NCBI GenBank assembly: GCA_023245035.1
Contig: JAHFLD010000004.1
Location: 13,496-77,495, forward strand
Source of the DNA: Candidatus Harrisonbacteria bacterium
GTDB taxonomy: Bacteria > Patescibacteriota > Minisyncoccia > UBA6257 > 1-14-0-10-40-38
Reading direction: 5' to 3'
DNA length: 64,000 nucleotides
Position numbers and translations under genes: made by a program. Positions 2,661-34,057 of this stretch are shown here, one piece after another (position 1 is the first letter of the stretch; each line of letters starts with the position of its first letter). The notes under the pieces were generated by a model, which saw nothing but the letters and a program-made list of their open reading frames with translations, was not told the origin of the DNA and did no database searches.

Positions 2661-4089
2661 AGCCGGTTGTCTTTTTTTGACCGTAGAAAACTATTATTAA
2701 CAGCGCCGTGAAATAAAAGACCGTGGCGACTCCGCCTATAGAGTTGACCCTGATCGCTCCCTGATGAGCGCTCAAGAACTCAATGATATTGATTTCGGCG
2801 CGAGTGATAATGCTCAAAAATTCACCGGCCAGCCCGCCCAAAATGGCGCTTAGGGAATAAACAGCCAGCGTGACTACGGCAAGGAGCATGGTTATGGGTA
2901 TCAAGGGCAAGATGATGACGTTGGCCAGAATAGAGATGAGTGAAACGGTTTTGAAACTCGCGGCCAAAACCGGAAAGACCACCGCTTGCGCGGCAATGGT
3001 ATTAATCGCATTCTCTCGCCAATGCCAAACTCCGGGATTTGGACCCAGGTAAAAGATTTTACGCAAAGCCGGAGCGAGATAAAAAATGCCGATTAGCGAC
3101 AGAAATGAAAGCTGGAAGCCGAGATCGCCAAGCAGGAGATAAGGATTAGCTAACAGCATCACGCAACAGGTTAGAGCGATGGTGTTGCGCGGACTGTAAA
3201 TCTTTTCCGCGTGCGCGGCGAGTCCAACCACGAGCGCCATAATCGCGGCGCGAATAATGGAGGCATCGGCGCCGGTCATAATCACAAAACCCAGCGCAAC
3301 TAGAATGGTCAAAACAAAGACGCCGCGGCGGGAGACAAGACCAAGCAATGCCACGGCGACTGACTGGATGATGATGGTGATGTTGTAGCCCGACAAGGCG
3401 ACGATGTGACTGACACCAGCCTTGCGGATCGCGTCGCGGAAGTTTTGTGAAAAACCTCCGGTGTCGCCTAAAAGCAATCCGGCGATGAAAGACGATTCTT
3501 TGGTCGGTAAAATCTTGCCGAGAGTGTTTTTGACCACGGTCTGCAGTTCATCCAATCCTCGCTTAATGGCATTGCCGCCCCCGTGGCTTTGAATGGTTAT
3601 TTTGGGAAAGTTTATGGTACCGCTTAATTTGTGGCGGGCGGCGTAGATTATTTTTTCTTCGGATATTGGATTCGCCTTTCCCTCAATTAAAATTTCGTCG
3701 CCGTAGCGCAGGGGCGGACTCTTTCGGGCGAGAATTTCCAGGCGTTCGCTTGGCGAGGCTTTGGTTTGAAAGAGAATGCGTTGTGAGTTTGGACTCTGGC
3801 GCACCTCTAAAACTATTCCGGTAAGATTGCGAGGGATGTCAAAAACGGCGCTTGGATTGCGATTAAAAACTATGGAATATCCTATCGCGTATAGAAACCC
3901 AGCGCCGACTCCGATAGCAATCATGAAGCGCAAAACAACTTTTGAGCGCCAGAGAATAAACTCCGCTATAACGACTCCTAAAATCAGCCAGGGTAAGACC
4001 GACCATGGATTCGCGGGGTTGGCAGTCGCGGCGTAGATACCGCTTACAAAACCCATCATTAGCCAAAAAGCCCTTTCGTGGAGCGGCAT
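2647..4089 (-). CDS. comEC: ComEC/Rec2 competence protein, N-terminal OB-like region plus polytopic membrane competence domain (first part of a split comEC)
   Basis: Multi-TM protein with the ComEC competence-domain architecture. It ends 14 nt inside the next ORF, which encodes the MBL domain normally fused to ComEC. Confidence 0.8.
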   Translation of the reverse strand: MPLHERAFWLMMGFVSGIYAATANPANPWSVLPWLILGVVIAEFILWRSKVVLRFMIAIGVGAGFLYAIGYSIVFNRNPSAVFDIPRNLTGIVLEVRQSPNSQRILFQTKASPSERLEILARKSPPLRYGDEILIEGKANPISEEKIIYAARHKLSGTINFPKITIQSHGGGNAIKRGLDELQTVVKNTLGKILPTKESSFIAGLLLGDTGGFSQNFRDAIRKAGVSHIVALSGYNITIIIQSVAVALLGLVSRRGVFVLTILVALGFVIMTGADASIIRAAIMALVVGLAAHAEKIYSPRNTIALTCCVMLLANPYLLLGDLGFQLSFLSLIGIFYLAPALRKIFYLGPNPGVWHWRENAINTIAAQAVVFPVLAASFKTVSLISILANVIILPLIPITMLLAVVTLAVYSLSAILGGLAGEFLSIITRAEINIIEFLSAHQGAIRVNSIGGVATVFYFTALLIIVFYGQKKTTGYERR

Positions 4090-4166: not shown

Positions 4167-4694
4167 TTAAAACTCCAGAGCGATTTTGGCCATAACGCCG
4201 TCATTGAAAGGGTGTTTGATTTCGCGCATTTCGGTTACCAGATCGGCGGCTTTTATAAAGGCCTCGGGGGCGTCGCGGCCGGTGAGAATTATGAATTTTT
4301 CTTTGGGGAGTTTTTTGATAACCCCCAAGACTTCATCCGCTGTTATGAGATTTAGATGGGTGGCGTTGTTTATTTCGTCTAAGATAATCAAGTCCCAGGT
4401 ATTTTTTTGAATTTCGGTTTCGGCTTCGCGCAGGGCGGATTCGGCGGCTTTTTGGTGCTCCTCAATCGGGAGCGAGTCGCCTAAAATTCCCACAAAACCG
4501 AGGCCTCGCTTGCGGAGTTCAAACCCGGGCTGGTTTTCCGGTTTTTGGATAATCACCTTATCCTCGCCAGACTTCCACGGCCCTTTAATGAATTGAATCA
4601 TTAAGGCTTTTTTGCCACGGCCAACCATGCGAGCCGCCTGGCCAAGCGCGGCGGTGGTTTTGCCCTTGCCGTTGCCGGTAAAGATGATGAGCAT
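4167..4694 (-). CDS. cobO: cob(I)yrinic acid a,c-diamide / cob(I)alamin adenosyltransferase (CobO/BtuR family)
   Basis: N-terminus MLIIFTGNGKGKTTAALGQAARMVGRGKKALMIQFIKG is the characteristic CobA/CobO P-loop. Confidence 0.8.
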   Translation of the reverse strand: MLIIFTGNGKGKTTAALGQAARMVGRGKKALMIQFIKGPWKSGEDKVIIQKPENQPGFELRKRGLGFVGILGDSLPIEEHQKAAESALREAETEIQKNTWDLIILDEINNATHLNLITADEVLGVIKKLPKEKFIILTGRDAPEAFIKAADLVTEMREIKHPFNDGVMAKIALEF

Positions 4695-4751: not shown

Positions 4752-5966
4752 CTAGCTAATCACTCCCCCGCCGAGCATTTCGCCAGACTTGGAATAGAAG
4801 ACGGCCGATTGCCCCGGAGCGACGAACTTTTGTGGGCGGTCAAAGGTGAGGGTGGCGGTAAATGAACGATGCGAAATTTTAAAATGCGAATGACGCGATT
4901 TTTTTTGGTTTAGTGATTTGTCATTGTCGACTTTCAGATATAGCATGGCTTTCGCGAGGGGCTGGCGATAGCGGAGGCGGGCGAAGACTGGAATGGGTTT
5001 TGGGGCGGGGGGTAAAAGGCGGCTGGTGGGAAATTTAGAGGTGGAAGAAGGCGCGGGCGGGGAAATAAAATGAAGGTCGGTTAGCATAACTTCTTTTTTT
5101 GAAAGTTCGGGGTGGTCGGCGCCTTCGGCGACGGTGATGGTGTTTTGTATAACATCTTTGGCTGATATGTAGCGGGGTCTAGAATTGGGAGTGAGGTTTG
5201 AGGGCTGAGGGCTGAGGTTAAATCCGTGGCGCTGGCCGATGGTATAAAAAGCCGCGCCGCGATGTTCACCGATGATATTGCCTTCGGGGTCGAGCACCGC
5301 GCCTTTTTTTGGTTTGATGTATTTGGCTAAAAAATCCGTCAGCGAAACTTTACCCAGGAAGCAGATGCCTTGGGAATCTTTTTTTTCGGCGTTGGGTAGT
5401 TTGAACTTTTTGGCGAACCGACGAACTTCGGGTTTGGTATAATCCCCAATTGGAAAGAGACAATGATCTAGCTGATCTTGCGTGAGCATCCAAAGGAAGT
5501 AGGATTGATCTTTGTTTTTGTCCAGAGCGGTAAATAACCGATGCGAAATTTTAGAATGCGAATGATGCGAAGTTTTACTCTTGCGACTTGCCAGCCGCAC
5601 ATAATGCCCAGTAGCAATGAAGTCGGCGCCGAGTTCGCGGGCGGCTTGATAAAAAAGTCCAAACTTAATTTCCCGATTGCACATCACATCGGGATTTGGG
5701 GTTTCGCCATTCTTGTATCCGGCGACCATGTATTCCACTACCTTGGCCTTGTATTCCTTTTCAAAATCCAGAACATAAAATGGGATTTTGAGAGCTTCGG
5801 CGGCGCGGCGGGCGTCTTCGGCATCTTGCTCGGCACACCCGTCAACGTTGTAACAGCGCAAATGGACGCCGGTTACTTGATAACCTTGTTTTTGAAGCAG
5901 GGCCGCGGCGACCGAGGAGTCCACCCCGCCGGACATCCCCACGAAGACCTTTTTTATTTTGATCAT
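4752..5966 (-). CDS. mnmA: tRNA-specific 2-thiouridylase MnmA
   Basis: SGGVDSSVAA PP-loop, the DKNKDQSYFLW motif, and a GQSAVFY C-terminus. It is longer than typical MnmA because of two in-frame insertions. Confidence 0.9.
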   Translation of the reverse strand: MIKIKKVFVGMSGGVDSSVAAALLQKQGYQVTGVHLRCYNVDGCAEQDAEDARRAAEALKIPFYVLDFEKEYKAKVVEYMVAGYKNGETPNPDVMCNREIKFGLFYQAARELGADFIATGHYVRLASRKSKTSHHSHSKISHRLFTALDKNKDQSYFLWMLTQDQLDHCLFPIGDYTKPEVRRFAKKFKLPNAEKKDSQGICFLGKVSLTDFLAKYIKPKKGAVLDPEGNIIGEHRGAAFYTIGQRHGFNLSPQPSNLTPNSRPRYISAKDVIQNTITVAEGADHPELSKKEVMLTDLHFISPPAPSSTSKFPTSRLLPPAPKPIPVFARLRYRQPLAKAMLYLKVDNDKSLNQKKSRHSHFKISHRSFTATLTFDRPQKFVAPGQSAVFYSKSGEMLGGGVIS

Positions 5967-5969
5967 ATT

Positions 5970-6004
5970 TATTACCCTTAAAAACTCCAGTTTTTAAGGA
6001 TGTT
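5970..6004. promoter_or_regulatory. Palindrome CCTTAAAAAC-TCCA-GTTTTTAAGG followed by GATGTTGTTAT. Candidate operator immediately 5' of mnmA.
   Basis: Perfect 10-bp inverted repeat. It is a near-identical copy of the site at 6313-6347. Confidence 0.45.
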
Positions 6005-6005
6005 G

Positions 6006-6308
6006 TTATATCTTTTGGAATGATTGCAGAAAGCGCACAAATGTCTTGCCATATGGCGATAGCGCATGTTCAACAAATTTACCGCGATATTTTTTATTAA
6101 CCAGCCCTGCCACATACAATCTCCGCGTATGTTCTCCAAGAGTCTTCTCGTTCGCGCCGAGCGCGGTGATAATATCGTCCAACGTTGCCCCATTGTTATC
6201 TGCAACATATAGCAAGATCTCAATCCGATAATGGTTAGCCATGCCCTTCAAATGCCGCTCCATCTGTTTAGCGGTTTTTGATTTTGCCATAGTCGCATTA
6301 TATATCAT
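6006..6308 (-). CDS. ArsR/SmtB-family winged-helix transcriptional regulator
   Basis: 100-aa protein with an HTH segment (HYRIEILLYVADNNGATLDDIITALGANEKTLGEHTRRLYVAGLV) typical of the ArsR family. Confidence 0.6.
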   Translation of the reverse strand: MIYNATMAKSKTAKQMERHLKGMANHYRIEILLYVADNNGATLDDIITALGANEKTLGEHTRRLYVAGLVNKKYRGKFVEHALSPYGKTFVRFLQSFQKI

Positions 6309-6312
6309 GCAC

Positions 6313-6347
6313 TTATAAACTCAAGTTTATAAGGATGTTATTTTGGG
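6313..6347. promoter_or_regulatory. Palindrome CTTATAAAC-TCAA-GTTTATAAG followed by GATGTTATTTT. Candidate operator directly 5' of the ArsR-like gene.
   Basis: 9-bp inverted repeat ending 3 nt before the regulator's start codon. It is paralogous to the site at 5970-6004. Confidence 0.45.
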
Positions 6348-6725
6348 GGACTTTGCTGATGGTTTAATAATTTTTCGGCTGGGGAGATGCCGCCGAAGAC
6401 TTTATGCGGAAAGTAGTTCCAGGCGTCGGATACCAACTGCGCAGTATTATCAAATAAACGAGAATTATAGTAAATAAACTTGATATTTCAGGGTATTCCC
6501 TGTTAAGAGGTCCATCTTTGTCCAGTTAAAAACTGTAGTGGATAAAATCGGGTATTTTTGCACAGTACGGCGTGGAAAATATGCAAAATTATCCCGAGCT
6601 CTAAATTTTGGGCGGTCAGCGTTCAAAATGCATTGGCAAGATTGTGTGAACCTCCACAGCCTTACGGCTGTGGCCTCCTTGGAATACCCCTCGACTATGC
6701 TCGGGGTTATATGCGCTTCATTCAT
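6338..6725 (-). pseudogene. Degraded transposase/integrase-core C-terminal fragment (frameshifted remnant)
   Basis: Minus-strand translation ends ...FIYYNSRLFDNTAQLVSDAWNYFPHKVFGGISPAEKLLNH*. This resembles the YYN...PAE C-terminal motif of rve-type transposases. There is no intact upstream ORF and the frame is broken. Confidence 0.3.
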
Positions 6726-6765
6726 CCCCAGCCTAAAACGGCAGGAGTTTGCTTATGTTGCGCAT

Positions 6766-6795
6766 ATAAAAAGAGCCCCAACTAAGTTGGGGCTC
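6766..6795 (-). terminator. Intrinsic terminator for the high-GC gene
   Basis: Perfect 11-bp stem GAGCCCCAACT/AGTTGGGGCTC with a 1-nt loop, followed on the minus strand by a T-run. Confidence 0.6.
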
Positions 6796-6864
6796 AAACG
6801 AACGGAAGAACTCAAGGAATCAAGAGAGTCAAGAGAGTCAAGAGTTCAAGCTAACAAGGGTCGA

Positions 6865-7740
6865 TTACTGCGAGACAAAGGCCGAAGCGGAACCATAGTC
6901 CCCGCCGGCGCTGCCGCACCAGCGGGCGCCGAACCGGACCCTGCCGCCGCCGAAGCGGAAGAGCGGCGCGAGCGAGAAGTCGCCATCGGCGTCCGGAGAG
7001 AACTCGTCACCAGCGCAGTCGACGTGGAGCTGTTCCCACTGAACCTCGCGTTCGGGGTGGGTCAGCAACATGATGCCGATTGCGAAGGCTCCGAGACCGA
7101 ACTCGTTGGCCGCGAAGACCTCACGTGCCCGGCGCACCGAACGGCCCTTGTGACGGAGACCGAACTGAGCCGGGACGACGAGGATGTCGTGATCCTTCTG
7201 CTCGTCGCCGAGCTTCTGGAACATCTTCGCCGTCTTGGCGTGCTGTCGCAGGTACTCCGTTCCGAGCTGGCCGTCACGGTAGTTGTAGAACTTCCGCTTG
7301 GACCCGATCATCGCGAGCACCTTCTCGACCGCTTCGCCGTACGTCGGCGCGAACTTCTCCCACTTCGGAATGGCGAACCATCCCTCGGCGTTCGGGGGAA
7401 GCGGCTGGTCGGCCAACTTCTCATCGGCGAAGCCGATACCCGGGAAGAGCTGACGCAGGATGTTGGTCTGCTCGGTGATCCCCTTGACCTTGTAGCCTTT
7501 GGGGTACGTGTAGCTCGACTGCACTTCCTCGTCAGCGAACTGGTTGGACACCGAGAGCTCTTTGATACCGGTCACGATGCGAGCTTGGAACTCGTCACCG
7601 TTCTCGATGAGCTTCTGGATGCCGTCCTTGTCGAGAGCCGTCTCTTTGAGCGCACGCAGGGCGGCGTCCTCGACAAAGCGCAGGTACTGTTTCTTTTGTC
7701 CATCCGTGATGGACGTGATCGACTGTGTCGTCATCGTCAT
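6865..7740 (-). CDS. Hypothetical protein encoded in a high-GC, high-GC3 (foreign-looking) segment
   Basis: 291-aa ORF with strong GC3 codon bias (ctc, atc, gtc, aag, gag, ttc) and diverse amino-acid composition. The opposite-strand ORF looks like an antisense shadow. Local GC is roughly 65% against ~50% around it. Confidence 0.6.
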   Translation of the reverse strand: MTMTTQSITSITDGQKKQYLRFVEDAALRALKETALDKDGIQKLIENGDEFQARIVTGIKELSVSNQFADEEVQSSYTYPKGYKVKGITEQTNILRQLFPGIGFADEKLADQPLPPNAEGWFAIPKWEKFAPTYGEAVEKVLAMIGSKRKFYNYRDGQLGTEYLRQHAKTAKMFQKLGDEQKDHDILVVPAQFGLRHKGRSVRRAREVFAANEFGLGAFAIGIMLLTHPEREVQWEQLHVDCAGDEFSPDADGDFSLAPLFRFGGGRVRFGARWCGSAGGDYGSASAFVSQ

Positions 7741-8702: not shown

Positions 8703-10352
8703 TTAGACCTCCTCTTCCAATTCCGGGTTTTCCAAAAAACTTACGCGGGTTTTTTCGGCTTCAATGATTTCTTGATTGTTCTTTTTAAGGGCTTCGTCGA
8801 TCGACTTGCGCAGATCGGATAGGTTTACCTCTTTCTTCTCGCGTTTTTCGAGCGGCGGAACTGGCGGCATTTCACGATTATCCGGCCGGCGGTTCATGGG
8901 CGGTGCTGGCATCGGCCGGTTGGCCGGCGGAGGCGAAGGCTGGCGCATCGGCGGGCGGCTATTTGGAGCGCTATTGTTCATTGGCGGACGACTCGGGCTA
9001 TTATTATTAAAAGTACGTTCGGGCGGTTGTTCGGGTCGGCGACTCATTCTTTCGTCCATGGCATTCATATCTTCCATCCATTCGCCGGCGATGTTCTTCT
9101 CTACGACTTGCCGGGGCGTGCCGTATTTAGTCCGCGAGTTTTGAATTATCGTTGCCTTGAAAGTTTTTTCCAAACTTGGAAATGGCGGTAACATTTCGGC
9201 GGAAAATGGCTTGGAAGCCATGCCATCAATCAAAAGTTTGATGTAGGTATTGTATTTTGGCAGATTGACCAAATCATTAGCGGTAAAATCTGGTAAAAAT
9301 TCTTTTTCCAAAAACTCGGCGTCTTCGGCGCCGATGCGGAAGGTAACAATGGTGCCGACGTTGCCGAAGACCGCGTCACGGACCTTGGTGTTGCCGTCGT
9401 GGGTCAACTGGCTGATATATTGATGAGCCAAAATCAGACAAAGGCGGTATTTTCTGGCTTCCGACAAGATGTTGGCAAAAGAGTCGGTGGCGAAGTTTTG
9501 AAATTCGTCCACATATAGATAGAAGTCCTTGCGATCTTTTTCGGGAATATCAACGCGCGACATGGCCGCCAACTGCAGGCGGGTAATAATCATGGAGCCG
9601 AGCAGGGCGGAATTATCCTCCCCCATCTTGCCCTTGGACAAGTTGACGATGAGGATTTTTTTCTCGTCCATAATCTTGCGCATGCTGACCGCCGATTGGG
9701 TTTGTCCCAAGATGTTGCGAATCAAAGGGTTAGAGATAAACTGGCCGATTTTGTTTTGAATGGCGGCGGTGGCTTCGGTTTCAAATTTTTGCGAATAACG
9801 GGAAAACTCGTTTACCCAGAAACTTTTGATGACCGGATCTTGCAGGTTCTCCACAATTCGGCGGCGATATTCCTTGTCGTTTAAAAGACGCATGATGCCA
9901 AGCAGCGTGGAACCCGGATATTCCAACAGCGCGAGCAGGGCGTTGTTTAAAATATATTCCATTCGGGATGACCAGACATCGGGCCAGATTTTTTTGAAAA
10001 CACCCATGATGCTTGACGCGATCAAGTGGCGAAATTCGTTGCCGACCTGTTCAATCGGATTAAAACCAATCGGATGCTCAACATCGGACGGATTGAAATA
10101 GACAACATCATTCAGGCGATGTTCCGGCACGAAATCCAGAACTTTTTCGGCAAACTCGCCGTGGGGATCAACGATGCCGACGCCGTGGCCGGCTTGAATA
10201 TCGCTGTAGACCATATTCTCCAGAATGGTCGTTTTGCCCATGCCGGTCTTGCCAATGATGTACATATGGCGACGACGGTCATCGGCCTTGATGCCGAATC
10301 TTTTGGTCTCGTTGCGAAAATTAACTTTGCCGAAAACGTTGATGTCTTTCAT
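8703..10352 (-). CDS. P-loop ATPase of the TraD/TraG/VirD4 (T4SS coupling-protein / DUF87-like) superfamily with a proline-rich C-terminal tail
   Basis: Walker A motif IGKTGMGKTT, Walker B motif LYVDEFQNF, and a low-complexity P/R/N-rich C-terminus. Confidence 0.55.
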   Translation of the reverse strand: MKDINVFGKVNFRNETKRFGIKADDRRRHMYIIGKTGMGKTTILENMVYSDIQAGHGVGIVDPHGEFAEKVLDFVPEHRLNDVVYFNPSDVEHPIGFNPIEQVGNEFRHLIASSIMGVFKKIWPDVWSSRMEYILNNALLALLEYPGSTLLGIMRLLNDKEYRRRIVENLQDPVIKSFWVNEFSRYSQKFETEATAAIQNKIGQFISNPLIRNILGQTQSAVSMRKIMDEKKILIVNLSKGKMGEDNSALLGSMIITRLQLAAMSRVDIPEKDRKDFYLYVDEFQNFATDSFANILSEARKYRLCLILAHQYISQLTHDGNTKVRDAVFGNVGTIVTFRIGAEDAEFLEKEFLPDFTANDLVNLPKYNTYIKLLIDGMASKPFSAEMLPPFPSLEKTFKATIIQNSRTKYGTPRQVVEKNIAGEWMEDMNAMDERMSRRPEQPPERTFNNNSPSRPPMNNSAPNSRPPMRQPSPPPANRPMPAPPMNRRPDNREMPPVPPLEKREKKEVNLSDLRKSIDEALKKNNQEIIEAEKTRVSFLENPELEEEV

Positions 10353-12912: not shown

Positions 12913-13818
12913 TTAGACCCTCTCTTCTTGGCCGCGCCACAGAGTTAACAAGGGGCTGGCGATAAAAATAGAAGAGTAGGTGCCAATTATGGTTCCGATT
13001 AGAATGGTAAGAGTGAAATAAGTCAGCGCCGAAGAGCTAAAGGCCAGAACGGCAAGCAAAACGAGCACGAGCGTGAGCGAGGTATTGATTGAGCGAGCTA
13101 AGGTTTGGTTGACGCTTTCGTTGACTAGCAAACTAAAATCTTTTTTACGCGAGTCTACTGCTTTTAGATTTTCGCGAACACGATCAAAGACGACGATGGT
13201 GTCGTGAACCGAGAAGCCCATGACGACCAAGACCGCCACCATAAAGTTGACGTCAATATCGATGCCGATGTAGTGGCCGAGGACGGCAAAAAGACCGACG
13301 GGAATAATGGCGTCATGAAAAAGAGTGATAAGCGTAATGGCGCCGTACTTCCAGGATTTGACCGGGTACGAGGACTTGCGGAAGGCAAAGGCGATGTAGG
13401 TTGAGATGGCAAAGAGAACCAGCAAAAAGGCGGTGATGGACTTCTGCCCGAGCTCTTTGCCGATAGAGGCGCCGATGGCCTGAAAAGAAAGCTCTTGAAC
13501 CGGACCAAACTCTTTGACCAGAAGTTTTAGATCTTCCTGTCGATCTTTTTCGGAAATCTCCTCCGTTCGGATTAAGAAAGTTTTGCCTTCTTGTTGCGGG
13601 ATTACGGTTACGTTTTCTTTTTTGATTTGGGTCTTGAAAAAAGCTCCCAAAGTGTCTTTGGTGGCGGCATTTTGAGTAAACGACAACTGCCACAAGGTTC
13701 CGCCCTTAAACTCAATTCCGAAGCGAAAACCGAAAACAAGCATGGCGACGACACTCAAGGCCACCAAGGTTCCCGAGATTGATAAAAATATTTTTCTGTG
13801 ACCGATGATGTTTTTCAT
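12913..13818 (-). CDS. secF: Protein translocase subunit SecF
   Basis: LSISGTLVALSVVAMLVFGFRFGIEFKGGT and an overall SecF topology. Confidence 0.9.
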   Translation of the reverse strand: MKNIIGHRKIFLSISGTLVALSVVAMLVFGFRFGIEFKGGTLWQLSFTQNAATKDTLGAFFKTQIKKENVTVIPQQEGKTFLIRTEEISEKDRQEDLKLLVKEFGPVQELSFQAIGASIGKELGQKSITAFLLVLFAISTYIAFAFRKSSYPVKSWKYGAITLITLFHDAIIPVGLFAVLGHYIGIDIDVNFMVAVLVVMGFSVHDTIVVFDRVRENLKAVDSRKKDFSLLVNESVNQTLARSINTSLTLVLVLLAVLAFSSSALTYFTLTILIGTIIGTYSSIFIASPLLTLWRGQEERV

Positions 13819-13851
13819 ATGGTTACGAATATACGAATTAGACTGATGTTG

Positions 13852-18385: not shown

Positions 18386-19474
18386 CTATAACTCCCCCTC
18401 CAGATCTTCCAGGAGTTTTTTGGCCTTCGGGGAAATTTTTTGCGGAACATTCACGTCCGGATAAATTATCAGGCGTCCGCGGCCATAACCGCCCAGGCGC
18501 GGCATGCCGGAACCGGACACGATTACCGGATCGCCAACTCGCGCGCCACGCGGAATTTCCAGGCCTACTTTTTCGCCGGCAATGCCGTCAATGACAATTT
18601 TGCGCCCGAGCAGGACATCGGCAAGTTTGAACTTGCGACGGGTTATAAGATCGTCTCCATCGCGATCAAATAACTCGTGCTTTTGAACTCTGACTCGCAC
18701 ATAGAGATCGCCTGGGTCGGCGCCACGTTCGCCAACTTCTCCGCCCTTTTGAATCTTAATCAGCTGGCCATCCATAATTCCCGGGGCGATAGAAATATCT
18801 ACCGTGCGCTCGCCCTTAACCCGTCCGGTGCCGGCGCAGGTTCGGCAAACTTTTTTGGGAATTTGACCGGTGCCGGAACATTTCTCGCAGGCGCGAACTT
18901 GTTCAAAACTGCCAAAAAAAGTATTGCGCACTTCTTTAATCTCTCCCCGGCCGTTGCAGGTGGCGCAGTCGGAAAATCCCTCCTTGGCAAAGTGGCCGAC
19001 TCCGGAACATTCTTGGCACTGAACATAAGTTTTGTAAGCTAAGGGTTTAACCGCCCCGCGGAAAGCTTCTTCTAGCGTGATGTCTTGCACATACTCCACA
19101 TCGGAGCCGTGGCGATAGGTTTTGCGTTTGCGTTTTACGCCCAGACCTTCAAAGAAGGAGTCAAACATATCGCCAAGATTGCCAAGATCGCCCATGTTCA
19201 CATTGCCAAAATCAAATTCAACGCCAAACGGGTTTTGCCCGCCGAAACCGGCGCCTCCAGATTGACCGTCAAAAGTCTGGCCGAAGCGGTCGTATTGCGA
19301 TTTTTTTTCGGGATTGGAAAGCACCTGATAGGCCTCGTTGATTTCTTTGAACTTGGCTTCGTTGCCACCGGCCTTGTCGGGGTGATGCTTGTGCGCCAAA
19401 GTACGATAGGCCTTTTTTATCTCTTCAACCGAGGCGCCTTTTTCCAAACCGAGGATTTTGTAGAAGTCTTTCAT
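18386..19474 (-). CDS. dnaJ: Molecular chaperone DnaJ
   Basis: J-domain KDFYKILGL...HPDK and four CxxCxGxG zinc-finger repeats. Confidence 0.9.
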   Translation of the reverse strand: MKDFYKILGLEKGASVEEIKKAYRTLAHKHHPDKAGGNEAKFKEINEAYQVLSNPEKKSQYDRFGQTFDGQSGGAGFGGQNPFGVEFDFGNVNMGDLGNLGDMFDSFFEGLGVKRKRKTYRHGSDVEYVQDITLEEAFRGAVKPLAYKTYVQCQECSGVGHFAKEGFSDCATCNGRGEIKEVRNTFFGSFEQVRACEKCSGTGQIPKKVCRTCAGTGRVKGERTVDISIAPGIMDGQLIKIQKGGEVGERGADPGDLYVRVRVQKHELFDRDGDDLITRRKFKLADVLLGRKIVIDGIAGEKVGLEIPRGARVGDPVIVSGSGMPRLGGYGRGRLIIYPDVNVPQKISPKAKKLLEDLEGEL

Positions 19475-19546
19475 GCTTTTACGAATTTACAAATTATTAC
19501 GAAAATACGAATAGAATGCTTGATAAAGAAATTCTGATCTGGCGCT

Positions 19547-20476
19547 TTACAGAATAACCACTTCTTTGGAGCGGCTTTCCAGACCGATATGGATTACATT
19601 AAGCCCCAAAAGTACATGATACGCAAGAAAGGCGAGAAAGACAACAACAAAGTTCAAGAAAAAGCCGATGCCCTTGAGGGTAAAAAACAGCAACACCCCC
19701 AGGCCGGCCGCGAGCAGAAGCTTGCCGCCGCCGGAAAGTTTGTCGGCTTTTTCGGTGAGCACTTTTTCCAGGGCGTGCGGAAGCGTTTCGTTGGCTTCAA
19801 TTTTGACCCCAAGTGAATCGCTGGCTGTGGCGATAATTTCCTGAACCTGAGCGTCCAGATAGGCCACGGGAATAGTCTGGCTTAGACCGAGTTTTTTTTG
19901 AGTGATGGCCTTGATGACATCACCGACCCGGCCGTCTAATTTTACTCCCGGAGAAAGTCTGGCGGTCAGCGGCAAAACACTTTCAATGGCCACTCGAACA
20001 TAATCTTTGGAGACGGCGCCGCCTTTGGTTTTGAGTTCGGCACCAACGTAGATTGCGGCAAAGAGCGCCAGTCCGGTAAAAAGAGCTCCGGAGGCGCGGC
20101 GGGCGGCGGCATAAAATTCAATATTTAAATTGTTTTCCAAAACTTTGTGTCCGCGTTCAAAACCAATAATCATAGTGGCGAACAGCAAAGCGGCGGGAAT
20201 TAAAACCGTGAAAGAAAACGAGGCGTAAAAGGGAGTGACAAAGGCCAGGACTTGGGCGGCATATAAACCGGAGGCGACTCTGACTCCTTTTACCAGAAAA
20301 GGGTGGAGTGTCATCAGCGCGAACCAAAGCACGCAATAAATGGCGAGACTCGCCGGACTACCGTCTTGGTTTAAAAATCGCTGTAGCGTCCAACCAAAAA
20401 GCGCCGCCAGCCCGGTGCTCAAAATGCCGAGAGTGATGACCTTCCATTTAGTGCCATCAATATTGGGTTCTTCCAT
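19547..20476 (-). CDS. Hypothetical polytopic membrane protein inserted between dnaK and dnaJ
   Basis: Several predicted TM helices and no recognisable catalytic motif. Confidence 0.5.
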   Translation of the reverse strand: MEEPNIDGTKWKVITLGILSTGLAALFGWTLQRFLNQDGSPASLAIYCVLWFALMTLHPFLVKGVRVASGLYAAQVLAFVTPFYASFSFTVLIPAALLFATMIIGFERGHKVLENNLNIEFYAAARRASGALFTGLALFAAIYVGAELKTKGGAVSKDYVRVAIESVLPLTARLSPGVKLDGRVGDVIKAITQKKLGLSQTIPVAYLDAQVQEIIATASDSLGVKIEANETLPHALEKVLTEKADKLSGGGKLLLAAGLGVLLFFTLKGIGFFLNFVVVFLAFLAYHVLLGLNVIHIGLESRSKEVVIL

Positions 20477-20750
20477 GTGATTACGAATTTACTAAGGTTA
20501 CGAATTTACGGATTATTACGAATGTACGAATAAATACAAAGATCCAAATGAAATACCACTAGGAATTCTGATGCTTTTTCAATTATAGCATTTTTGTCGT
20601 GATGTCGGTTTTTTTGTCGGTAAATCAAAGAATATTGAGTCTCCAAAAAAACCCACGAATTTAGATCCATGGCCCTCATCGGGGCACCCTTCGATCCCCA
20701 TCAGCTTACAAGGCTGGTGGGGATTTTTTATTCGCTCAAACAAAACGGTT

Positions 20751-26374: not shown

Positions 26375-26475
26375 ACTAGATACAATACTTCTATTCCGGG
26401 ATAGCCCCGCCTACGCCAAGAGCTTTGGCGGGCAGGTCAGCGATATATTCAACCGCTATCCCGAAATAGAAACAT

Positions 26476-26547
26476 TCCGGGATAGCTCAGCGGTAGAGCG
26501 GCGCGCTGTTAACGCGAAGGTCGCAGGTTCGATCCCTGCTCCCGGAG
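26476..26547 (+). tRNA. tRNA-Asn (anticodon GTT)
   Basis: Hand-folded: acceptor TCCGGGA/TCCCGGA, D-arm GCTC..GAGC, anticodon loop CTGTTAA, T-arm GCAGG-TTCGATC-CCTGC, discriminator G. Confidence 0.85.
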
Positions 26548-28014: not shown

Positions 28015-28017
28015 AAT

Positions 28018-31000
28018 TTATTCGGAGAACTTACCGCCAGAAATGTCGAAAAATCTCTCAAAGAAGCTCGTCAGTTTACTTAGAACACTTTCACGTTTTT
28101 TGGTACGCTCACCGGTGGGAGAAAATCGAGATACGGCCGGTAAAACCTTAGTGATTGCTGTACCCGTCGTTGCCAAATTACCGTCACGAAACGCATTTCG
28201 TACAAACCTATACGTTGCGTCGTGATCAAGATTTTCGCTCACAATAATTTGTTCGAGTTCTTCAACCTTTTTCCCTTCAACAAACTTCTGCCAGTCGTCA
28301 TCAACCACGGAGTGTATATCAAGCGAAGAGATAAACTGGTTAATGAGGTCTTTCTTGTTGCGTAGCTCAACACTTGAGTCTATTGCTTTGTTAATATCAA
28401 CTAAAATCTCACGATTTTTTGTGTGGTCTTCGTGGTATTTTTTAATGAGCCCTAGTACGTAGTCGATATTTATCTCTACCTGTTTAATAAGCTCCATCTC
28501 AAACACCAAGTCATCGTTGATATTCTCTTTAGCATCCTCAACTCCCTTGCGAAATTCGTTATAAAGATCAATATATGCACTGTGATAATCTTGAATATCT
28601 CGATCCGATAAAATCTCATTTCCAATAAACTCGTCAAAGGTCGTCAGGATATTACGCACGCGCAAAATTCCGCCATAGAGCTTAATGAAGTCTTTTTGGT
28701 TTTGCTCACCTATAATTCTTTCCCCGACGGGGAACTTTTCCAAAAGCTCCGCGACGAGGCTTGCATAGCCACGTATTTGCTTCTCGCCATCTTTATAGCC
28801 GTGATAATACTCAGCATATGATTTGAGTAGAACGATGCCACTCGCTTCCTTATCACCAAAGAGCGCTATGGACTCATTGGTCGCTTTTTCTAGGTTGCGG
28901 AAACAAACAATGTTACCGAAAGTTTTTACGCTGTTTAAAATACGATTCGTACGCGAAAATGCTTGTAGAAGTCCGTGCAATCTTAGATTTTTGTCTACCC
29001 ATAGCGTATTGAGTGTTGTTGCATCAAAACCAGTCAAAAACATATTGACCACGATAAGAATATCGATCTCACGATCTTTTGCGCGCTGACTGACATCTTT
29101 ATAGTAATTTTGAAATTTATCAGATGACGTATCGTAGGATGTGCCAAACATCGCATTGTAATCAGCAATAGCTCCATCCAAAAAATCTCTTGAACTCACA
29201 TCGAGTCCAGTCGTATCCTCTGAGTTTTCATCTATCATTCCATCCGCATCCTCGTCGTTCACTCCAAAGCTATAAATTGTTGCTACTTTGAGTCGCTTAT
29301 CACTTGGTACGTCCGCAAGTTGTTTTTTGAACTCTGCATAATACTTCTTTGCAACATCAATAGATGAAACTGCAAAAATTGAGTTAAAGCCAGCGAGTCT
29401 CCGATCTTTCAACTTATAAAAACTATTGCGCTTGGTCTTTTGATCAAAATGCTCCCGAATGTAGCCAACAATATTTGCCAATCGTTCAGGTGCGGCAAGC
29501 ACTGCCTCACGATCAATATCGCTCACTTTCTTATCTTCAATATTCTCAGCTTCGCGGACGGTAGAAATATAATCAACCTTAAACGGTAAAACATTTTTAT
29601 CAGCGATTGCGTCCACGATAGTGTACGTGTGCAATTTTTCGCCAAAGGCTTGCTCGGTAGTCTTCAAATCGAGTCGCCCACCAGAAGACGCATTCATCGC
29701 AAAAATCGGCGTGCCGGTAAAGCCAAAGAGATGATAGCTTTTAAATGTCTTGGTAATAGCGGCGTGCATGTCGCCGAACTGTGAGCGGTGACATTCGTCA
29801 AAGATAAGCACGACGTGGCCATCAAAAATCGTATGCCCAGAATTTCGTCCAATAAAACGATCGAGTTTCTGAATAGTTGTGATGATGATACGTGCGTTCG
29901 GATTCTCTAGCTGACGCTTCAAAATCGCCGTACTAACATTGCTATTGGCCGCACCTTTTTCAAACTTGTCATATTCTCGCATCGTCTGGTAGTCCAGGTC
30001 TTTACGGTCAACAATAAAAACCACCTTATCTACATACGGCAATTTGCTCACCAGCTGTGCCGTCTTGAAGCTGGTCAAAGTTTTTCCTGATCCTGTCGTG
30101 TGCCAAATATACCCGCCAGCCTCTACCGTGCCGAGCTTTTTGTAGTTTGTACTTACTTCGATGCGACTCAGTATTCGCTCTGTTGCTACTATCTGATACG
30201 GTCGCATCACCAAGAGCTGTTTGTCGGTAGTAAACACGCAATAACGGGTCAAAATATTCAAAAGTGTGTGCTTCGCAAAAAAAGTCTTGGCAAAGTCCGT
30301 TAAGTCTGTAATGGGTCGGTTGGTAGAATCTGCCCACCAACTCGTAAACTCAAAACTATTACTCGCCCGTTTACCTTTTTTCGCTGTACCGGTACTGACT
30401 TCTTTTATGTGCTCTTTACGTGTCGTATTGCTGTAATACTTTGTGTGTGTGCCGTTTGAAATAATAAACAGTTGCACATATTCAAAAAGTCCTGCTGAAG
30501 CAAAGAAGCTTTCCCGCTGATAACGATTGATCTGATTGAAAGCTTCTTGAATAGCAACCCCGCGACGTTTAAGCTCTACATGCACCAACGGCAGGCCGTT
30601 TACTAGCACCGTCACATCATAGCGGTTGGCACGCTTTCCCTCATCCGTCGCGTATTGGTTGATAACCTGCAGACTGTTATCGTGAATATTGTCCTTTTTG
30701 AGGAGGTAGACATTTTTTACCGTACCGTCCTCGCGCGTCAGGTTCTTGATGTGGTCTTCTTGAATGGTTGCTGTCTTTTCTTCAACGCTTTGATTCGGGT
30801 TAGCAATCTCACTTGCAAAGAAATGCTCCCATTCCGTATCGGTGAATGTAAAACCATTAAGCTTCTCTAATTGCAGACGGAGGTTCAATGTCAAATCAGC
30901 CTCAGAGGTGATAGGTAGATACTCATACGCTTGCTTTGTAAGTTGTTCTATAAATACCTTCTCTAAATTCGCTTCACTTTGATACTGTGTGACACGCTGA

Positions 31001-31077
31001 ATATTTGGCGTGTATTGTGCCACTACGGTGCTTTGTGGATTTTCCGCGACGAGATTGTATTTATTGTTACTTGGCAT
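28018..31077 (-). CDS. hsdR: Type I restriction enzyme R subunit
   Basis: 1019 aa with the helicase motif TGSGKT, DEAH-like motif FDECHRS, and a nuclease region near the N-terminus. Confidence 0.9.
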   Translation of the reverse strand: MPSNNKYNLVAENPQSTVVAQYTPNIQRVTQYQSEANLEKVFIEQLTKQAYEYLPITSEADLTLNLRLQLEKLNGFTFTDTEWEHFFASEIANPNQSVEEKTATIQEDHIKNLTREDGTVKNVYLLKKDNIHDNSLQVINQYATDEGKRANRYDVTVLVNGLPLVHVELKRRGVAIQEAFNQINRYQRESFFASAGLFEYVQLFIISNGTHTKYYSNTTRKEHIKEVSTGTAKKGKRASNSFEFTSWWADSTNRPITDLTDFAKTFFAKHTLLNILTRYCVFTTDKQLLVMRPYQIVATERILSRIEVSTNYKKLGTVEAGGYIWHTTGSGKTLTSFKTAQLVSKLPYVDKVVFIVDRKDLDYQTMREYDKFEKGAANSNVSTAILKRQLENPNARIIITTIQKLDRFIGRNSGHTIFDGHVVLIFDECHRSQFGDMHAAITKTFKSYHLFGFTGTPIFAMNASSGGRLDLKTTEQAFGEKLHTYTIVDAIADKNVLPFKVDYISTVREAENIEDKKVSDIDREAVLAAPERLANIVGYIREHFDQKTKRNSFYKLKDRRLAGFNSIFAVSSIDVAKKYYAEFKKQLADVPSDKRLKVATIYSFGVNDEDADGMIDENSEDTTGLDVSSRDFLDGAIADYNAMFGTSYDTSSDKFQNYYKDVSQRAKDREIDILIVVNMFLTGFDATTLNTLWVDKNLRLHGLLQAFSRTNRILNSVKTFGNIVCFRNLEKATNESIALFGDKEASGIVLLKSYAEYYHGYKDGEKQIRGYASLVAELLEKFPVGERIIGEQNQKDFIKLYGGILRVRNILTTFDEFIGNEILSDRDIQDYHSAYIDLYNEFRKGVEDAKENINDDLVFEMELIKQVEINIDYVLGLIKKYHEDHTKNREILVDINKAIDSSVELRNKKDLINQFISSLDIHSVVDDDWQKFVEGKKVEELEQIIVSENLDHDATYRFVRNAFRDGNLATTGTAITKVLPAVSRFSPTGERTKKRESVLSKLTSFFERFFDISGGKFSE

Positions 31078-32284
31078 ATTCGTTGAAAGCTAAAAGTTTA
31101 CCCCGATAGTATTCATACTGTGATCTACGAGCAGAGAGTTCTGCTGGCAAACCTATCGAAATATCACTTACAAGCGCATTGAACTTATCCAAAATCGTCA
31201 CTATACGCTCTTGTTCTGCGAGGGGTGGAATTGAGACCTCCACATTTGCCATGACATTACTCATAAGTTTGGGATTGCCCATTCCAGCACTGACATATTT
31301 TTTAGCAACAGTTGCCAGTATGTACGCAAGAAATTTTGTATTTACATCTTCAACTTTGACTTTCAAAAGCCCGCAAACATTTGTAAGACTAAACTTTCCG
31401 TTACGATAGAAAATAGAACCGGCGTTTGCCCCGTCAGTTGTCCAAGTCACATACTCACCGTCATAATCGTAAGTACTGATGTATCCAAAGACACCATCAT
31501 CTGTTGTTTGCGATGAGTAGACTGGGTATTCGCCTCTATTTGTTTTTAGATAATCTTTTGACATAACTCTACCTCGGTTAATTTGACATATCTCCGATAT
31601 CGTGGCGCGTCTTACTCTCTCTCTCTCGGTTCCTTCCTTAAATGTCAGAAGTTGTGAGCGATAATGCTCGTACTGCTTCTTTCTCGCTTCTAGCTCCGCT
31701 TCTAGCTCCGCTTCTAGCTCCGTAAAACTATTAAGAGTTTTGATAATATTTTCTTGTACTGCAAGTGGTGGTAGGGGTATTTTAATTTTTGCAAAACGCT
31801 TTTTTGAGACATTAAATCTCGTCACTCCACTGGCAGTTTTTGCAATCTGTTTTCTCATCTGTTCATCCCTAAACAAATATTTAGAGAACTCGGGCAACAA
31901 CAAGTTATTGTCATTCAGGCGAAAGCCAAAACAAAAACTATTTAAATACAACGGCTCACTAATTTTCTTTGTTAAAACAGAGGACATCCCACACTCGTCT
32001 GGCGTTTCTGATGAGCCTGTAAATAACACATCACCATATTCGATCCTGTTTTGATTTTCGTCTTTGCCTACTTTTACAAAGACATCGATATCGGTATTGA
32101 CCGCGATGTTAGAGTATATATTCATGTAGGTAACAAATTTTGCGTTACCATTGCTAAAATCATCTTTGCTTTTGCCTGACAGCCCACCATAAAACTCGCC
32201 TAGTTCTCCCAACTCCTTAAACTCAACCCCATTGGGGCAGAGCTTAGCAATCAGTTTTTCAATTTTGCTCATATGTTTAATCAT
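31067..32284 (-). CDS. hsdS: Type I restriction-modification specificity subunit
   Basis: Two target-recognition domains separated by a central (ELEA)3 coiled-coil spacer. It overlaps hsdM and hsdR by a few nt, in operon fashion. Confidence 0.85.
   Translation of the reverse strand: MIKHMSKIEKLIAKLCPNGVEFKELGELGEFYGGLSGKSKDDFSNGNAKFVTYMNIYSNIAVNTDIDVFVKVGKDENQNRIEYGDVLFTGSSETPDECGMSSVLTKKISEPLYLNSFCFGFRLNDNNLLLPEFSKYLFRDEQMRKQIAKTASGVTRFNVSKKRFAKIKIPLPPLAVQENIIKTLNSFTELEAELEAELEARKKQYEHYRSQLLTFKEGTERERVRRATISEICQINRGRVMSKDYLKTNRGEYPVYSSQTTDDGVFGYISTYDYDGEYVTWTTDGANAGSIFYRNGKFSLTNVCGLLKVKVEDVNTKFLAYILATVAKKYVSAGMGNPKLMSNVMANVEVSIPPLAEQERIVTILDKFNALVSDISIGLPAELSARRSQYEYYRGKLLAFNEYAK
31686..31721. 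repeat. Perfect 12-bp x3 tandem repeat (CTTCTAGCTCCG) in the hsdS central conserved region
   Basis: Encodes ELEAELEAELEA in-frame on the minus strand. Confidence 0.9.
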
Positions 32285-33867
32285 TTTGTTCCTTCAATAT
32301 CGCTAACGATCTCGTCAATCGAGGTGCGGAGTTCCTGTTGCCGTGCCACGATGCCCGCTATTCTCGTGTTCAGCTCCGTAATGTCTACCACCTCGCGAGT
32401 GTCTTCCGCCATAACATAGCTTGAAACGGCAATATTGTAGTCATTTTCGGCAACGGCTTTATTGTCCACGAGTTTGGCAAAATACTTGGCATCTTTGCGA
32501 GTACTGAATGCTTCCAAAATCTTGGAGCGATTCGTCTCGCTCAATTTATTTTTGTTGCCACCACGAGTAAATTCGACAGAGGCGTCGATAAAAAGTGTTT
32601 TGTTATCTTTCTTGCTCTTTTTAAGCACAATGATACAAGTGGCTATGGTAGTACCAAAAAAGAGATCAGGCGGTAGCTGGATAACTGTATCAACGTAGTT
32701 GTTGTCTATCAGATACTTGCGAATTTTCTGCTCTGCACCACCACGATAGAGGACGCCCGGAAATTCAACGATTGCGGCAGTGCCACTGGTAGAAAGCCAG
32801 CTGAGCATGTGCATAGTAAAAGCTAGGTCAGCTTTACTCTTTGGAGCGAGTACTCCCGCAGGAGAGAAGCGTGGATCATTGATGAGGAGAGGGTTAGCAT
32901 CGCCCTCCCAGTGGATGGAATATGGCGGGTTGGAGACGATAGCGTCAAACGGTTCATCGTCCCAATGCTTTGGATCGGTGAGCGTATCGCCGTGAGCAAT
33001 ATCAAAATTGTTGTAGTTTATATCGTGCAAGAACATGTTGATACGACATAAGTTGTAGGTGGTCAGGTTAATTTCCTGTCCGAAAAAACCTAGACGAACA
33101 TTTTCTTTGCCGAGCACTTTGGCGAATTTAAGGAGTAGTGAGCCAGAACCGCAGGCTGGATCATAGACCTTATTTACTTCTTTCTTGCCGACTGTGGTAA
33201 TTTCGGCCAAAAGTTCACTGACTTCCTGTGGAGTGTAGAACTCGCCTCCAGACTTACCAGCGTTTGAGGCGTACATAGTCATGAGGAACTCATACGCATC
33301 GCCGAAAGCGTCTATTGTATTGTCGGAGTAGTTGCCAAGGCGAAGGTCGCCAATAGATTCAAATAGTTTTGCGAGTTTTTGATTTCGTTTTTCTACCGTA
33401 CTTCCTAGTTTATTGGAGTTGACATCAAGGTCATCAAACAAGCCCTTGATATCATCTTCACTGTTCGCACCTTTTGCAGAATTTTCAATATTACGAAAGA
33501 CTGCTGTAAGGGTTTCGTTGAGATTAGCGTCATTGCGAGCATTTTTCCTGACATTCACAAAAAGCTCACTTGGCAAAATGTAAAAACCTTTTTCTTTGAC
33601 GGTATCAGCTCGACCGAACTCAGCTTCTTTGTTGGAAAGTGTAGCGTAATCAAAATCTTTTTTAGCCGCGCGGCGTTCATCAGCATTTATATAGTTGGTC
33701 AAATTTTCACTGATGAAGCGATAAAAGAGTATACCGAGTACATACTGCTTGAAGTCCCAACCATCTACGCTTCCACGTAAATCATTAGCAATCTGCCAAA
33801 TAGCACGATGCAGCTCGGCACGCTCCTGCTCTTTGGTTGTATTTAGATGTGCTTCTTTGTTTGGCAT
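32281..33867 (-). CDS. hsdM: Type I R-M N6-adenine DNA methyltransferase subunit
   Basis: NPPY motif (VSNPPYSIHW) and an AdoMet motif FYTPQEV...DPACGSGS. Confidence 0.9.
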   Translation of the reverse strand: MPNKEAHLNTTKEQERAELHRAIWQIANDLRGSVDGWDFKQYVLGILFYRFISENLTNYINADERRAAKKDFDYATLSNKEAEFGRADTVKEKGFYILPSELFVNVRKNARNDANLNETLTAVFRNIENSAKGANSEDDIKGLFDDLDVNSNKLGSTVEKRNQKLAKLFESIGDLRLGNYSDNTIDAFGDAYEFLMTMYASNAGKSGGEFYTPQEVSELLAEITTVGKKEVNKVYDPACGSGSLLLKFAKVLGKENVRLGFFGQEINLTTYNLCRINMFLHDINYNNFDIAHGDTLTDPKHWDDEPFDAIVSNPPYSIHWEGDANPLLINDPRFSPAGVLAPKSKADLAFTMHMLSWLSTSGTAAIVEFPGVLYRGGAEQKIRKYLIDNNYVDTVIQLPPDLFFGTTIATCIIVLKKSKKDNKTLFIDASVEFTRGGNKNKLSETNRSKILEAFSTRKDAKYFAKLVDNKAVAENDYNIAVSSYVMAEDTREVVDITELNTRIAGIVARQQELRTSIDEIVSDIEGTK

Positions 33868-33869
33868 AA

Positions 33870-34052: not shown

Positions 34053-34057
34053 AGTTA

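Follow-up and report, generated by a model that had tools for sequence, protein, structure and literature searches.

In the 64-kb window, by which we mean the whole 64,000-nucleotide stretch of DNA that was analysed, two closely similar palindromes bracket a small gene for an ArsR-like winged helix-turn-helix protein (6006-6290, 94 aa, Met start MAKSKTAKQMERHLKG..., stop codon TAA at 6008-6006), hereafter called the regulator. The gene that follows is mnmA, encoding a tRNA 2-thiouridine synthase (4752-5966; Pfam tRNA_Me_trans, E = 9e-75), and the regulator, mnmA and both palindromes have their sense on the minus strand. The palindrome upstream of the regulator, copy B (6303-6342, read from 6342 to 6303; sense AATAACATCCTTATAAACTTGAGTTTATAAGTGCATGATA), contains a perfect 10-2-10 core located by inverted-repeat analysis at 6312-6333 (arms 6312-6321 and 6324-6333). 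Copy A (5968-6007, read from 6007 to 5968; sense AACAACATCCTTAAAAACTGGAGTTTTTAAGGGTAATAAA) spans the region from the regulator stop codon to mnmA, and the same analysis gives it a perfect 11-2-11 core at 5976-5999 (arms 5976-5986 and 5989-5999). It begins within the TAA stop codon, its last base is 1 nt short of the mnmA ATG, and the 39-nt gap between the two genes is wholly taken up by it. The initial annotation had described a near-identical palindromic pair with one member just 5' of the mnmA start. Both sites are present and copy A does end 1 nt before that ATG; the first coordinate given for the pair was about 6 nt off, the quoted string beginning at 5976 and not at 5970.

With their flanks the two copies form a 46-nt direct repeat of 78% identity (5962-6007 against 6297-6342). 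A degenerate 29-mer derived from the twin sites matches only 5976-6004 and 6311-6339 in the 64 kb, where shuffled sequences predict 0.00 matches (n = 100), and a PWM scan, in which copy B scores 44.5 and copy A 39.8, returns no third copy in the window. Further upstream on the minus strand, a GC-rich canonical intrinsic terminator (GAGCCCCAAC-TTAG-TTGGGGCTC followed by TTTTTAT, at 6773-6795) closes the preceding transcription unit and shows that ordinary terminators are in use by this genome. Elsewhere in the window, the low-GC stretch between 26 and 38 kb is a type I restriction-modification island.

The regulator and its promoter

Judged by its sequence, the regulator is a distant member, or divergent branch, of the ArsR/SmtB family: it matches Pfam HTH_5 with E = 4e-6 and 26.9 bits (cutoff 22), scores 31.3 bits against NCBIfam HTH_metalloreg, which is below the cutoff of 55, and finds PDB sequences with E-values of about 1e-3 at best. 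The AF2 model is an H-H-H-H-E-E-H winged helix with a mean pLDDT of 80, and the top Foldseek matches are CadC (1u2w), SqrR (6o8k) and HlyU (4k2e), with E-values around 1e-5, together with AspA (rmsd of 1.5-1.8 Å over 74 residues). The 94-aa sequence contains no cysteine and no reactive Cys pair of the kind present in BigR, SqrR and HlyU. The alpha-3N Cys motif and the alpha-5 metal site are likewise absent, and the C-terminal helix (SPYGKTFVRFLQSFQKI) holds no His, Asp or Glu; His19, His26, His60 and His81 are invariant. We retrieved 1903 homologues, the best 120 of which are 75-100% identical to the regulator, and all those that carry an organism name belong to Patescibacteria/Parcubacteria. 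Compared over one set of genome pairs, regulators share 73-83% of their residues and MnmA proteins 44-53%, and the recognition helix and wing of the regulator are invariant. Co-evolution of the recognition helix with the type of half-site was considered as a test and proved uninformative, because helix and wing do not vary, not even at loci whose sites all belong to the CCAAC/GTTGG type.

According to the alignment of homologues, the gene truly starts with the ATG at 6290, which encodes the conserved Met of MAKxKTAKQMERHLKG, and not at 6308, where a 100-aa ORF opens. The statement in the initial annotation that one site ends 3 nt before the ATG refers to that longest-ORF codon at 6308 and does not hold for the conserved start, since a TATAAT lies in between. 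The variable 'xYNxx' extension at the N-terminus of database proteins is explained by the reading of this -10 box as codons. Versions of the same regulator with 85, 94 and 100 aa are found in the databases.

The promoter scan identified the TATAAT as the -10 hexamer (6297-6302, minus strand), ending 6 nt before the ATG at 6290, and a -35-like hexamer, TTGAGT, at 6319-6324 on the same strand, in the centre of copy B. The resulting promoter, TTGAGT-16 nt-TATAAT, matches 10 of 12 consensus positions. Among 118 orthologous genes from genome and metagenome loci, a -10-like hexamer is present in 101; its end is exactly 6 nt from the conserved ATG in 95, it is a perfect TATAAT in 77, and a T[TG]GAGn hexamer stands at the 16-nt spacer in 71. 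A -10 follows the motif in 53 of 66 copies upstream of the regulator, in 3 of 65 copies downstream of it and in almost none of the dispersed copies described below. No Shine-Dalgarno sequence precedes the regulator gene; in the window as a whole, leaderless-type starts are common (13 of 63 genes), and few genes (14 of 63) have a Shine-Dalgarno-like sequence. With the -35 at the dyad, the TATAAT after the right arm and the ATG 6 nt further on, a leaderless mRNA is implied, and the regulator promoter is, as far as sequence can tell, of a conserved leaderless-mRNA type with its -35 at the palindrome dyad centre. The promoter consensus should be of use in start-codon correction.

Considering that the candidate operator overlaps this leaderless promoter, autoregulation, as proposed in the initial annotation, is strongly supported by inference: the upstream copy is fused to the conserved promoter in 71 to 95 of the 118 genes, depending on the hexamer counted. 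In the proposed mechanism, protein bound to copy B would exclude RNA polymerase, and the regulator would thus repress itself. The same arrangement bears on the suggestion that the palindromes act as RNA hairpins that occlude ribosome-binding sites. For copy B this fails, because transcription is inferred to begin only downstream of the element and because the regulator has no Shine-Dalgarno sequence that could be occluded; for copy A it is conceivable, as discussed in the next section.

Conservation of the cassette and the genes that follow it

The consensus of the element is AAyAACATCCTTAyAAACT-kG-AGwwTrTAAGGATGTTrTT, an x-2-x palindrome that reaches 19-2-19 in its full form; it contains four ACA/TGT blocks, at motif positions 5-7, 13-15, 26-28 and 34-36. 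Complementarity between mirrored positions is high at motif positions 2-39 and falls to chance level immediately beyond, and the element is therefore a palindrome of fixed length, about 38 bp. Nearly all half-site matches (319 of 327) lie inside full palindromes. Both copies flank the regulator gene at 74 of 81 loci from 80 species-representative genomes and at 33 of 40 metagenome loci; taken singly, the upstream copy is found at 77 and the stop-codon copy at 76 of the 81 genome loci. The distance between the starts of the two copies has its mode at 335 bp and is 334-338 bp at most loci, with no single helical phase. The taxa that carry the cassette include Nomura-, Kaiser-, Taylor-, Lipton-, Giovannoni-, Sungii-, Uhr- and Doudna-bacteria among the candidate phyla of the Parcubacteria, and site and protein together form what appears to be an ancient cassette common to the Parcubacteria group.

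We found no description of the motif or of the regulator in the literature. The Parcubacteria comprise a huge and almost uncultured diversity with tiny genomes and very few regulators, and the control of transcription in them is almost unstudied. Here, a 38-bp site and a 94-aa protein, more conserved than MnmA, provide a concrete candidate protein-DNA pair, and with it come a conserved leaderless promoter architecture and a set of recurrent neighbours, namely TspO, mnmA and several unknown families.

Whichever gene comes next, the first base of the downstream 40-mer lies inside the regulator stop codon. A TspO-like gene is the commonest successor (at least 16 loci); mnmA is found directly or within about 1 kb downstream at some 10 of the 81 loci (about 10-12%), and the other neighbours are RarA, a Pif1 helicase, Def, a Nudix protein, HolB, MPG, an SDR protein and unknown families. 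Since copy A is a constant part of the regulator cassette whatever gene follows, it is not an mnmA-specific operator. Control of mnmA by the same repressor, which the initial annotation had suggested, has to be restated in this light: copy A belongs to the cassette and TspO is the more frequent neighbour, while mnmA does recur beside it and is probably reached by read-through. The element is also found near mnmA in other settings. One copy each stands before an mnmA gene at two loci that lack the regulator, L117 (with a TATAAT) and L128, and copies lie in frame inside mnmA at L020 and L022, with a weak one (score 20) at L054.

Of 59 genes downstream of copy A, 56 share its strand, and the start is usually 2-70 nt past the copy. 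Such close, co-oriented starts, with a -10 after the copy in only 3 of 65 cases, require read-through from the regulator promoter. In the window, the promoter scan found no promoter-like site on the minus strand between 6290 and 5966; the gap leaves no space for a separate mnmA promoter, and for this reason mnmA probably depends on the regulator promoter and on read-through of copy A. A promoter within copy A in the register of copy B (TGGAGT-16 nt-TATGAT) was considered and rejected, because its -10 would contain the mnmA ATG and 62 of 65 downstream copies have no -10. Co-transcription of mnmA with the regulator by read-through is accordingly the probable arrangement suggested by this layout. 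In this case mnmA would be transcribed from the regulator promoter, and the same protein would set its output twice, once at the promoter and once at copy A, acting there as a roadblock or auxiliary operator.

An additional effect at the RNA level is possible at mnmA. The right arm of copy A contains AAGGG (5975-5979, minus strand), which resembles a Shine-Dalgarno sequence and stands 8 nt before the mnmA AUG, and the RNA of copy A is predicted to form a 12-bp hairpin of -12 kcal/mol in which the AAGGG is paired. In the mnmA transcript this hairpin would be a further brake, so that the occlusion of a ribosome-binding site may apply to copy A. The spacing of AAGGG to AUG at mnmA is peculiar to this genome among its relatives.

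Dispersed and intragenic copies

No further copies of the element were found in the window, as noted above; beyond it, dispersed ones came to light on metagenome contigs, the initial annotation having recommended a search of the genome. Scanning these contigs for the motif gave 120 loci, only 38 of which contain the regulator, and a rough estimate, based on the 12 among 38 well-flanked loci that carry the regulator, gives about 4-5 dispersed loci per genome. The copies cluster near the regulator gene. Phage contigs are without the element, and the single matching viral contig looks like a cellular regulator-TspO locus.

The gaps that hold dispersed copies are tandem in 55 cases, convergent in 22 and divergent in 2 (convergent against divergent, binomial p = 4e-5). 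Among gaps in which both flanking ORFs have at least 120 aa, 12 of 51 convergent and 1 of 42 divergent ones carry a copy (Fisher p = 0.005). Convergent cases between bona fide genes include ABC-2 permease/Obg, an SLT-domain protein/RF2 and Pif1/DEAD-box helicase, and many dispersed copies overlap or adjoin the stop codon of the upstream gene. In tandem gaps the strand that reads TTGAG/CTGGAG is the coding strand in 43 cases and the opposite one in 12 (p = 3e-5).

About one tenth of all copies are intragenic and in frame, where they encode peptides like HPY[IK]LE[NF]VRM. In five TspO orthologues that contain such a copy, codons for the same amino acid are identical in 92% of cases over the 12 motif codons, compared with 45% elsewhere in the gene, and the nucleotide sequence itself is therefore under selection in the TspO copies. 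The genes that start right after copies include TspO (16), a 197-aa family (9) and mnmA (at least 5); no common function was found among the genes adjoining copies. This placement, at 3' ends, at convergent junctions and in frame inside genes, does not fit an ordinary regulon pattern. Dispersed copies had not been anticipated by the initial annotation.

Nature of the element and comparison with known systems

The ArsR family binds x-2-x inverted repeats located upstream of or within the regulated genes (PMC8790569). The system described here is most like an autoregulated ArsR/SmtB repressor. As in the autorepressors SmtB, CzrA, AzuR and ZiaR, which have 12-2-12 operators, a small winged-helix protein is associated with an inverted repeat with a 2-bp spacer that overlaps its own -35 or transcription start. 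[quoted passage not shown] The palindrome extends up to 19-2-19, as opposed to 12-2-12, and, unlike in ArsR/SmtB systems, a second copy is fixed at the stop codon, the site is conserved across phyla, and dispersed copies occur at 3' ends and inside genes. In these respects the element and its regulator differ from every ArsR/SmtB member that we found described.

Auxiliary operators within coding regions are known from lac O2 and gal OI, and repressors can act as roadblocks. An extra copy downstream of the promoter, for example the in-frame TspO copy about 260 nt after copy A, is comparable, and the in-frame TspO copies may be regarded by analogy as auxiliary operators of the lac O2 kind. In contrast to lac O2 and gal OI, looping or a roadblock is only putative here, and the spacing of the copies does not keep to one helical phase.

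From sequence anatomy, conservation, placement and protein fold, which constitute the direct evidence, we infer binding, repression, read-through and the role of the hairpin. We conclude that the primary function of the element is probably protein binding to duplex DNA, because of the fusion to a promoter, the fold of the protein, the fixed ends and near-invariant sequence of the palindrome, the A.A mismatches that more than half of the copies have at two inner pairs, the selected intragenic copies and the need for read-through. The explanation as a whole, in which the twin sites are DNA sites of the protein encoded between them, with self-repression and read-through into mnmA, has in our estimate a probability of roughly 0.55. 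If the plain autorepressor is the true form of the system, it would give a first regulon-level handle on the Parcubacteria. Several observations count against the explanation as a whole. The regulator has no cysteine or obvious ligand site, and the neighbours of the copies share no function. The 3'-end-like placement of the dispersed copies is unlike that of operators, and the bias of orientation towards the gene strand is not predicted by a symmetric dimer site.

A second possibility, which we put forward tentatively and with clearly less confidence than an even chance, is a two-part system specific to Parcubacteria, in which the near-invariant 38-bp palindrome and its 94-aa winged-helix binder would form an orientation-sensitive boundary or landmark. 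The complex could then be a roadblock or insulator at gene ends and inside selected genes, or a landmark for replication or segregation, and the promoter copy could act as a titration sensor that matches the level of the protein to the number of sites. Protein-dependent boundaries at 3' ends and inside genes, if that is what these copies are, would be a novel means by which streamlined genomes mark off domains of transcription or of the chromosome.

An unlikely alternative is that the element works mainly as an RNA hairpin, by marking or stabilising 3' ends, attenuating read-through or occluding ribosome-binding sites, with the protein either irrelevant or RNA-binding. The position of copies at stop codons and between convergent genes (22 gaps, compared with 2 divergent ones) and the tracking of the coding strand (43 against 12) agree with it, as does the predicted fold of copy A at mnmA, which hides the AAGGG. 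In the sense orientation, G.U mismatches outnumber A.C mismatches. Three copies have a GC-rich hairpin inserted exactly at the dyad, and these variants also speak against a duplex site, since an insertion of this kind keeps the hairpin and does not keep the duplex site. Finally, the two arms of a site pair better with each other than with arms exchanged from another site at that locus (z = 5.2); such covariation within sites agrees with an RNA stem and counts against a duplex site. As a test for RNA, however, this covariation is weak overall and significant within loci, it might also reflect the inheritance of sites as whole units, and the ends of the palindrome are fixed.

Several observations stand against the RNA explanation. 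The stem is never longer than the conserved 38 bp, and fixed ends are expected of a protein site and not of an RNA stem. Transcription is inferred to start only after copy B, which is joined to a -35/-10 pair in about 80% of the 118 genes. A plain hairpin needs no sequence-specific constraint, yet the element is near-invariant across candidate phyla, and A.A mismatches interrupt two inner pairs in most copies. Ribosomes would melt the selected intragenic copies; inside TspO, a terminator or RNA hairpin would serve no purpose or do damage, and the selection on the TspO copies thus favours the duplex-site explanation. The genes immediately downstream need read-through, and no Rfam family matches: in the window only two tRNAs reach the gathering score, and nothing credible appears at 5900-6900 with E-values up to 1. 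An intrinsic terminator in particular was rejected, given that the stem is AU-rich and has no U-tract (a mean of 3.2 T in the 8 nt past the stem, over 355 copies), that read-through is needed and that the terminator at 6795-6773 is unlike the element.

We consider it equally improbable that the element is a protein-bound, low-copy chromosomal landmark of the Ter/RTP, parS/ParB or AspA-centromere type, with the promoter copy serving to match protein levels and the neighbourhood of mnmA being accidental. The low copy number, with some 4-5 dispersed loci per genome, and the deep conservation of both site and protein are compatible with such a function, and so is the tendency of the copies to avoid promoters, to occur in genes under nucleotide selection and to cluster near the gene of the protein. 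The bias in orientation could mirror replication polarity. The structural match to the centromere-binding protein AspA adds to the resemblance: a fold near that of AspA is combined with a low-copy, conserved palindrome that occurs beside the gene of the protein and inside coding sequences. On the other side, no partition ATPase, ParA, ParB or replication gene is linked to the element in the window or in the loci examined, there is no evidence of spreading, and the precise -35/-10 register of the promoter copy is unlike AspA/ParB systems. The recurrent set of genes right after copies (TspO, the 197-aa family and mnmA) looks regulatory. The window, which contains no dnaA, has a positive GC skew throughout, and both copies point along the minus-strand genes; this is a single case.

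RTP of Bacillus subtilis is a small winged-helix dimer that is autoregulated by Ter sites adjoining its own gene; these sites are about 30 bp long, consist of two imperfect inverted halves, number a handful per genome and function in an orientation-dependent manner. The winged helix, the few sites and a site beside the protein's own gene are shared with the system described here. Unlike Ter sites, the element recurs before the same gene families. Among the first 50 Foldseek matches, RTP appeared neither by sequence nor as a top-ranked structure.

Very improbable, by comparison, is a REP/MITE-like selfish palindromic repeat inserted at tolerated places, with the flanked gene as its factor in a REPtron-like arrangement. 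The element is indeed a dispersed extragenic palindrome that follows stop codons, separates convergent genes and is depleted where promoters diverge, it is inserted in frame at differing MnmA hot-spots and in a TspO loop, and the gene stands between two copies, as RAYT genes do between REPs. Yet there is only a handful of copies per genome (single digits and not hundreds, which disposes of a high-copy REP), many candidate phyla share essentially one sequence whereas each REP is confined to its lineage, the flanked gene encodes a 94-aa winged helix that has neither an HUH nor a transposase domain, purifying selection maintains orthologous intragenic copies, and the upstream copy is functionally integrated with a promoter.

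Other known classes of element were also set aside. A DUS/USS uptake signal disagrees with half-sites that are almost never found alone and with a density far below one per kb, and a restriction-modification C-box would involve the wrong fold class, there being no R-M linkage at the regulator. By inspection only, an integron attC-like site was set aside, as the outer arms misfit RYYYAAC/GTTRRRY, sequence and not structure is conserved, and no integrase is linked. The placement of the element after stop codons in co-oriented arrays is nevertheless attC-like.

In-frame repeats within TspO and mnmA genes

The 38-bp palindrome that flanks the gene of the ArsR-like regulator is found in frame within TspO genes lying 3' of the regulator, in the related genome or metagenome loci L004 (positions 2256-2295), L006 (3563), L008 (833), L011 (3595) and L029 (4605). 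In these genes it falls in the loop between TM2 and TM3, where it encodes the peptide QHPYILENVRML, and its synonymous positions are nearly frozen: when codons for the same amino acid are compared, 92% are identical within the palindrome and 45% outside it.

A different element, about 45 nt long, occurs twice in frame within the mnmA gene of the window, at 4867-4893 and at 5539-5565 on the minus strand. Its sequence is TCATTCGCATTyTAAAATTTCGCATCG, and the two copies encode the peptides SRHSHFKISHRSFTA and SHHSHSKISHRLFTA. This element contains direct repeats of TTCGCAT and is therefore not a palindrome. The number of copies expected by chance is zero, and none was found in 80 related loci. Both copies are located at insertion hot-spots of MnmA, the positions at which other Parcubacteria have the 38-bp palindrome in frame.

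Palindrome variants and genes beside dispersed copies

A related second palindrome family, AACAACATTCTcACATTCT-GC-AGAATGTgAGAATGTTGTT with CTGCAG, CTCGAG or CTTGAG at its centre, was observed at L082 848, L152 1521, L153 3820, L167 383, L128 97, L089 3041, L192 4395 and L182 4103, in genomes where the main element is present as well. This family may be the site of a paralogous protein, or else a tolerated variant. Other copies of the main element (L068 1845, L076 5966 and L104 7634, perhaps joined by L082 1788) are interrupted at the dyad by a GC-rich hairpin of 36-60 nt (CCTGCCCG...CGGG), placed exactly between ACTTG and AGAAT.

Certain genes recur beside copies of the element (L076 638-1801, L133, L134, L161, L169 and L171; L065 2162-2908, L057 and L072). 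The recurrent neighbours include proteins resembling type I restriction-modification specificity subunits and DUF559/MTES_1575 endonucleases, together with two further families of 197 aa (MDTIKECFDTIL...) and 243 aa (MQPKYDLDKIKF...), for which searches of Pfam and NCBIfam returned zero matches.

Regulator start and the region upstream of its promoter

Public collections assign three different starts to the regulator, giving proteins of 100, 94 and 85 aa (window 6006-6308; database homologues P0001, P0002 and P0020). The conserved promoter and the alignment support the 94-aa form. Between the regulator promoter and the terminator of the upstream gene (6795-6773), the stretch at 6348-6865 includes some 420-500 nt devoid of a convincing ORF, and Rfam gave zero matches in it. 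Promoter-like sites are present at 6491..6464 and 6474..6446 (minus strand), together with a hairpin, CCACAGCC-TTAC-GGCTGTGG, near 6655-6675 and three repeats of GAGTCAAGA at about 6815-6845.

Additional features of the window

Within a few kb of the regulator cassette lie genes for a TrwB/TraG-like type IV coupling protein (8703-10352) and a ComEC-like competence channel (2647-4089), both on the minus strand. A gene resembling cobalamin adenosyltransferase (4167..4694) is preceded by a leaderless-type promoter of its own, TTTACC-16-TATACT, followed after 6 nt by ATG.

At about 26000-38000 lies a low-GC island, in which GC is 0.38-0.43 compared with about 0.49 and the GC skew is negative. The island harbors a complete restriction-modification system of type I, made up of hsdR (28018..31077), hsdS (31067..32284) and hsdM (32281..33867), and several ORFs that belong to no family; it was probably acquired horizontally.

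Decamers of the AAATTCGTAA type occur as 2-3 direct copies immediately 5' of three minus-strand genes, at about 13819-13855, 19475-19510 and 20477-20512 (upstream of 12913..13818, 18386..19474 and 19547..20476, respectively). They look like a separate candidate regulatory motif, one example of which reads, up to the start codon, TCCGTAAATTCGTAACCTTAGTAAATTCGTAATCAC ATG.
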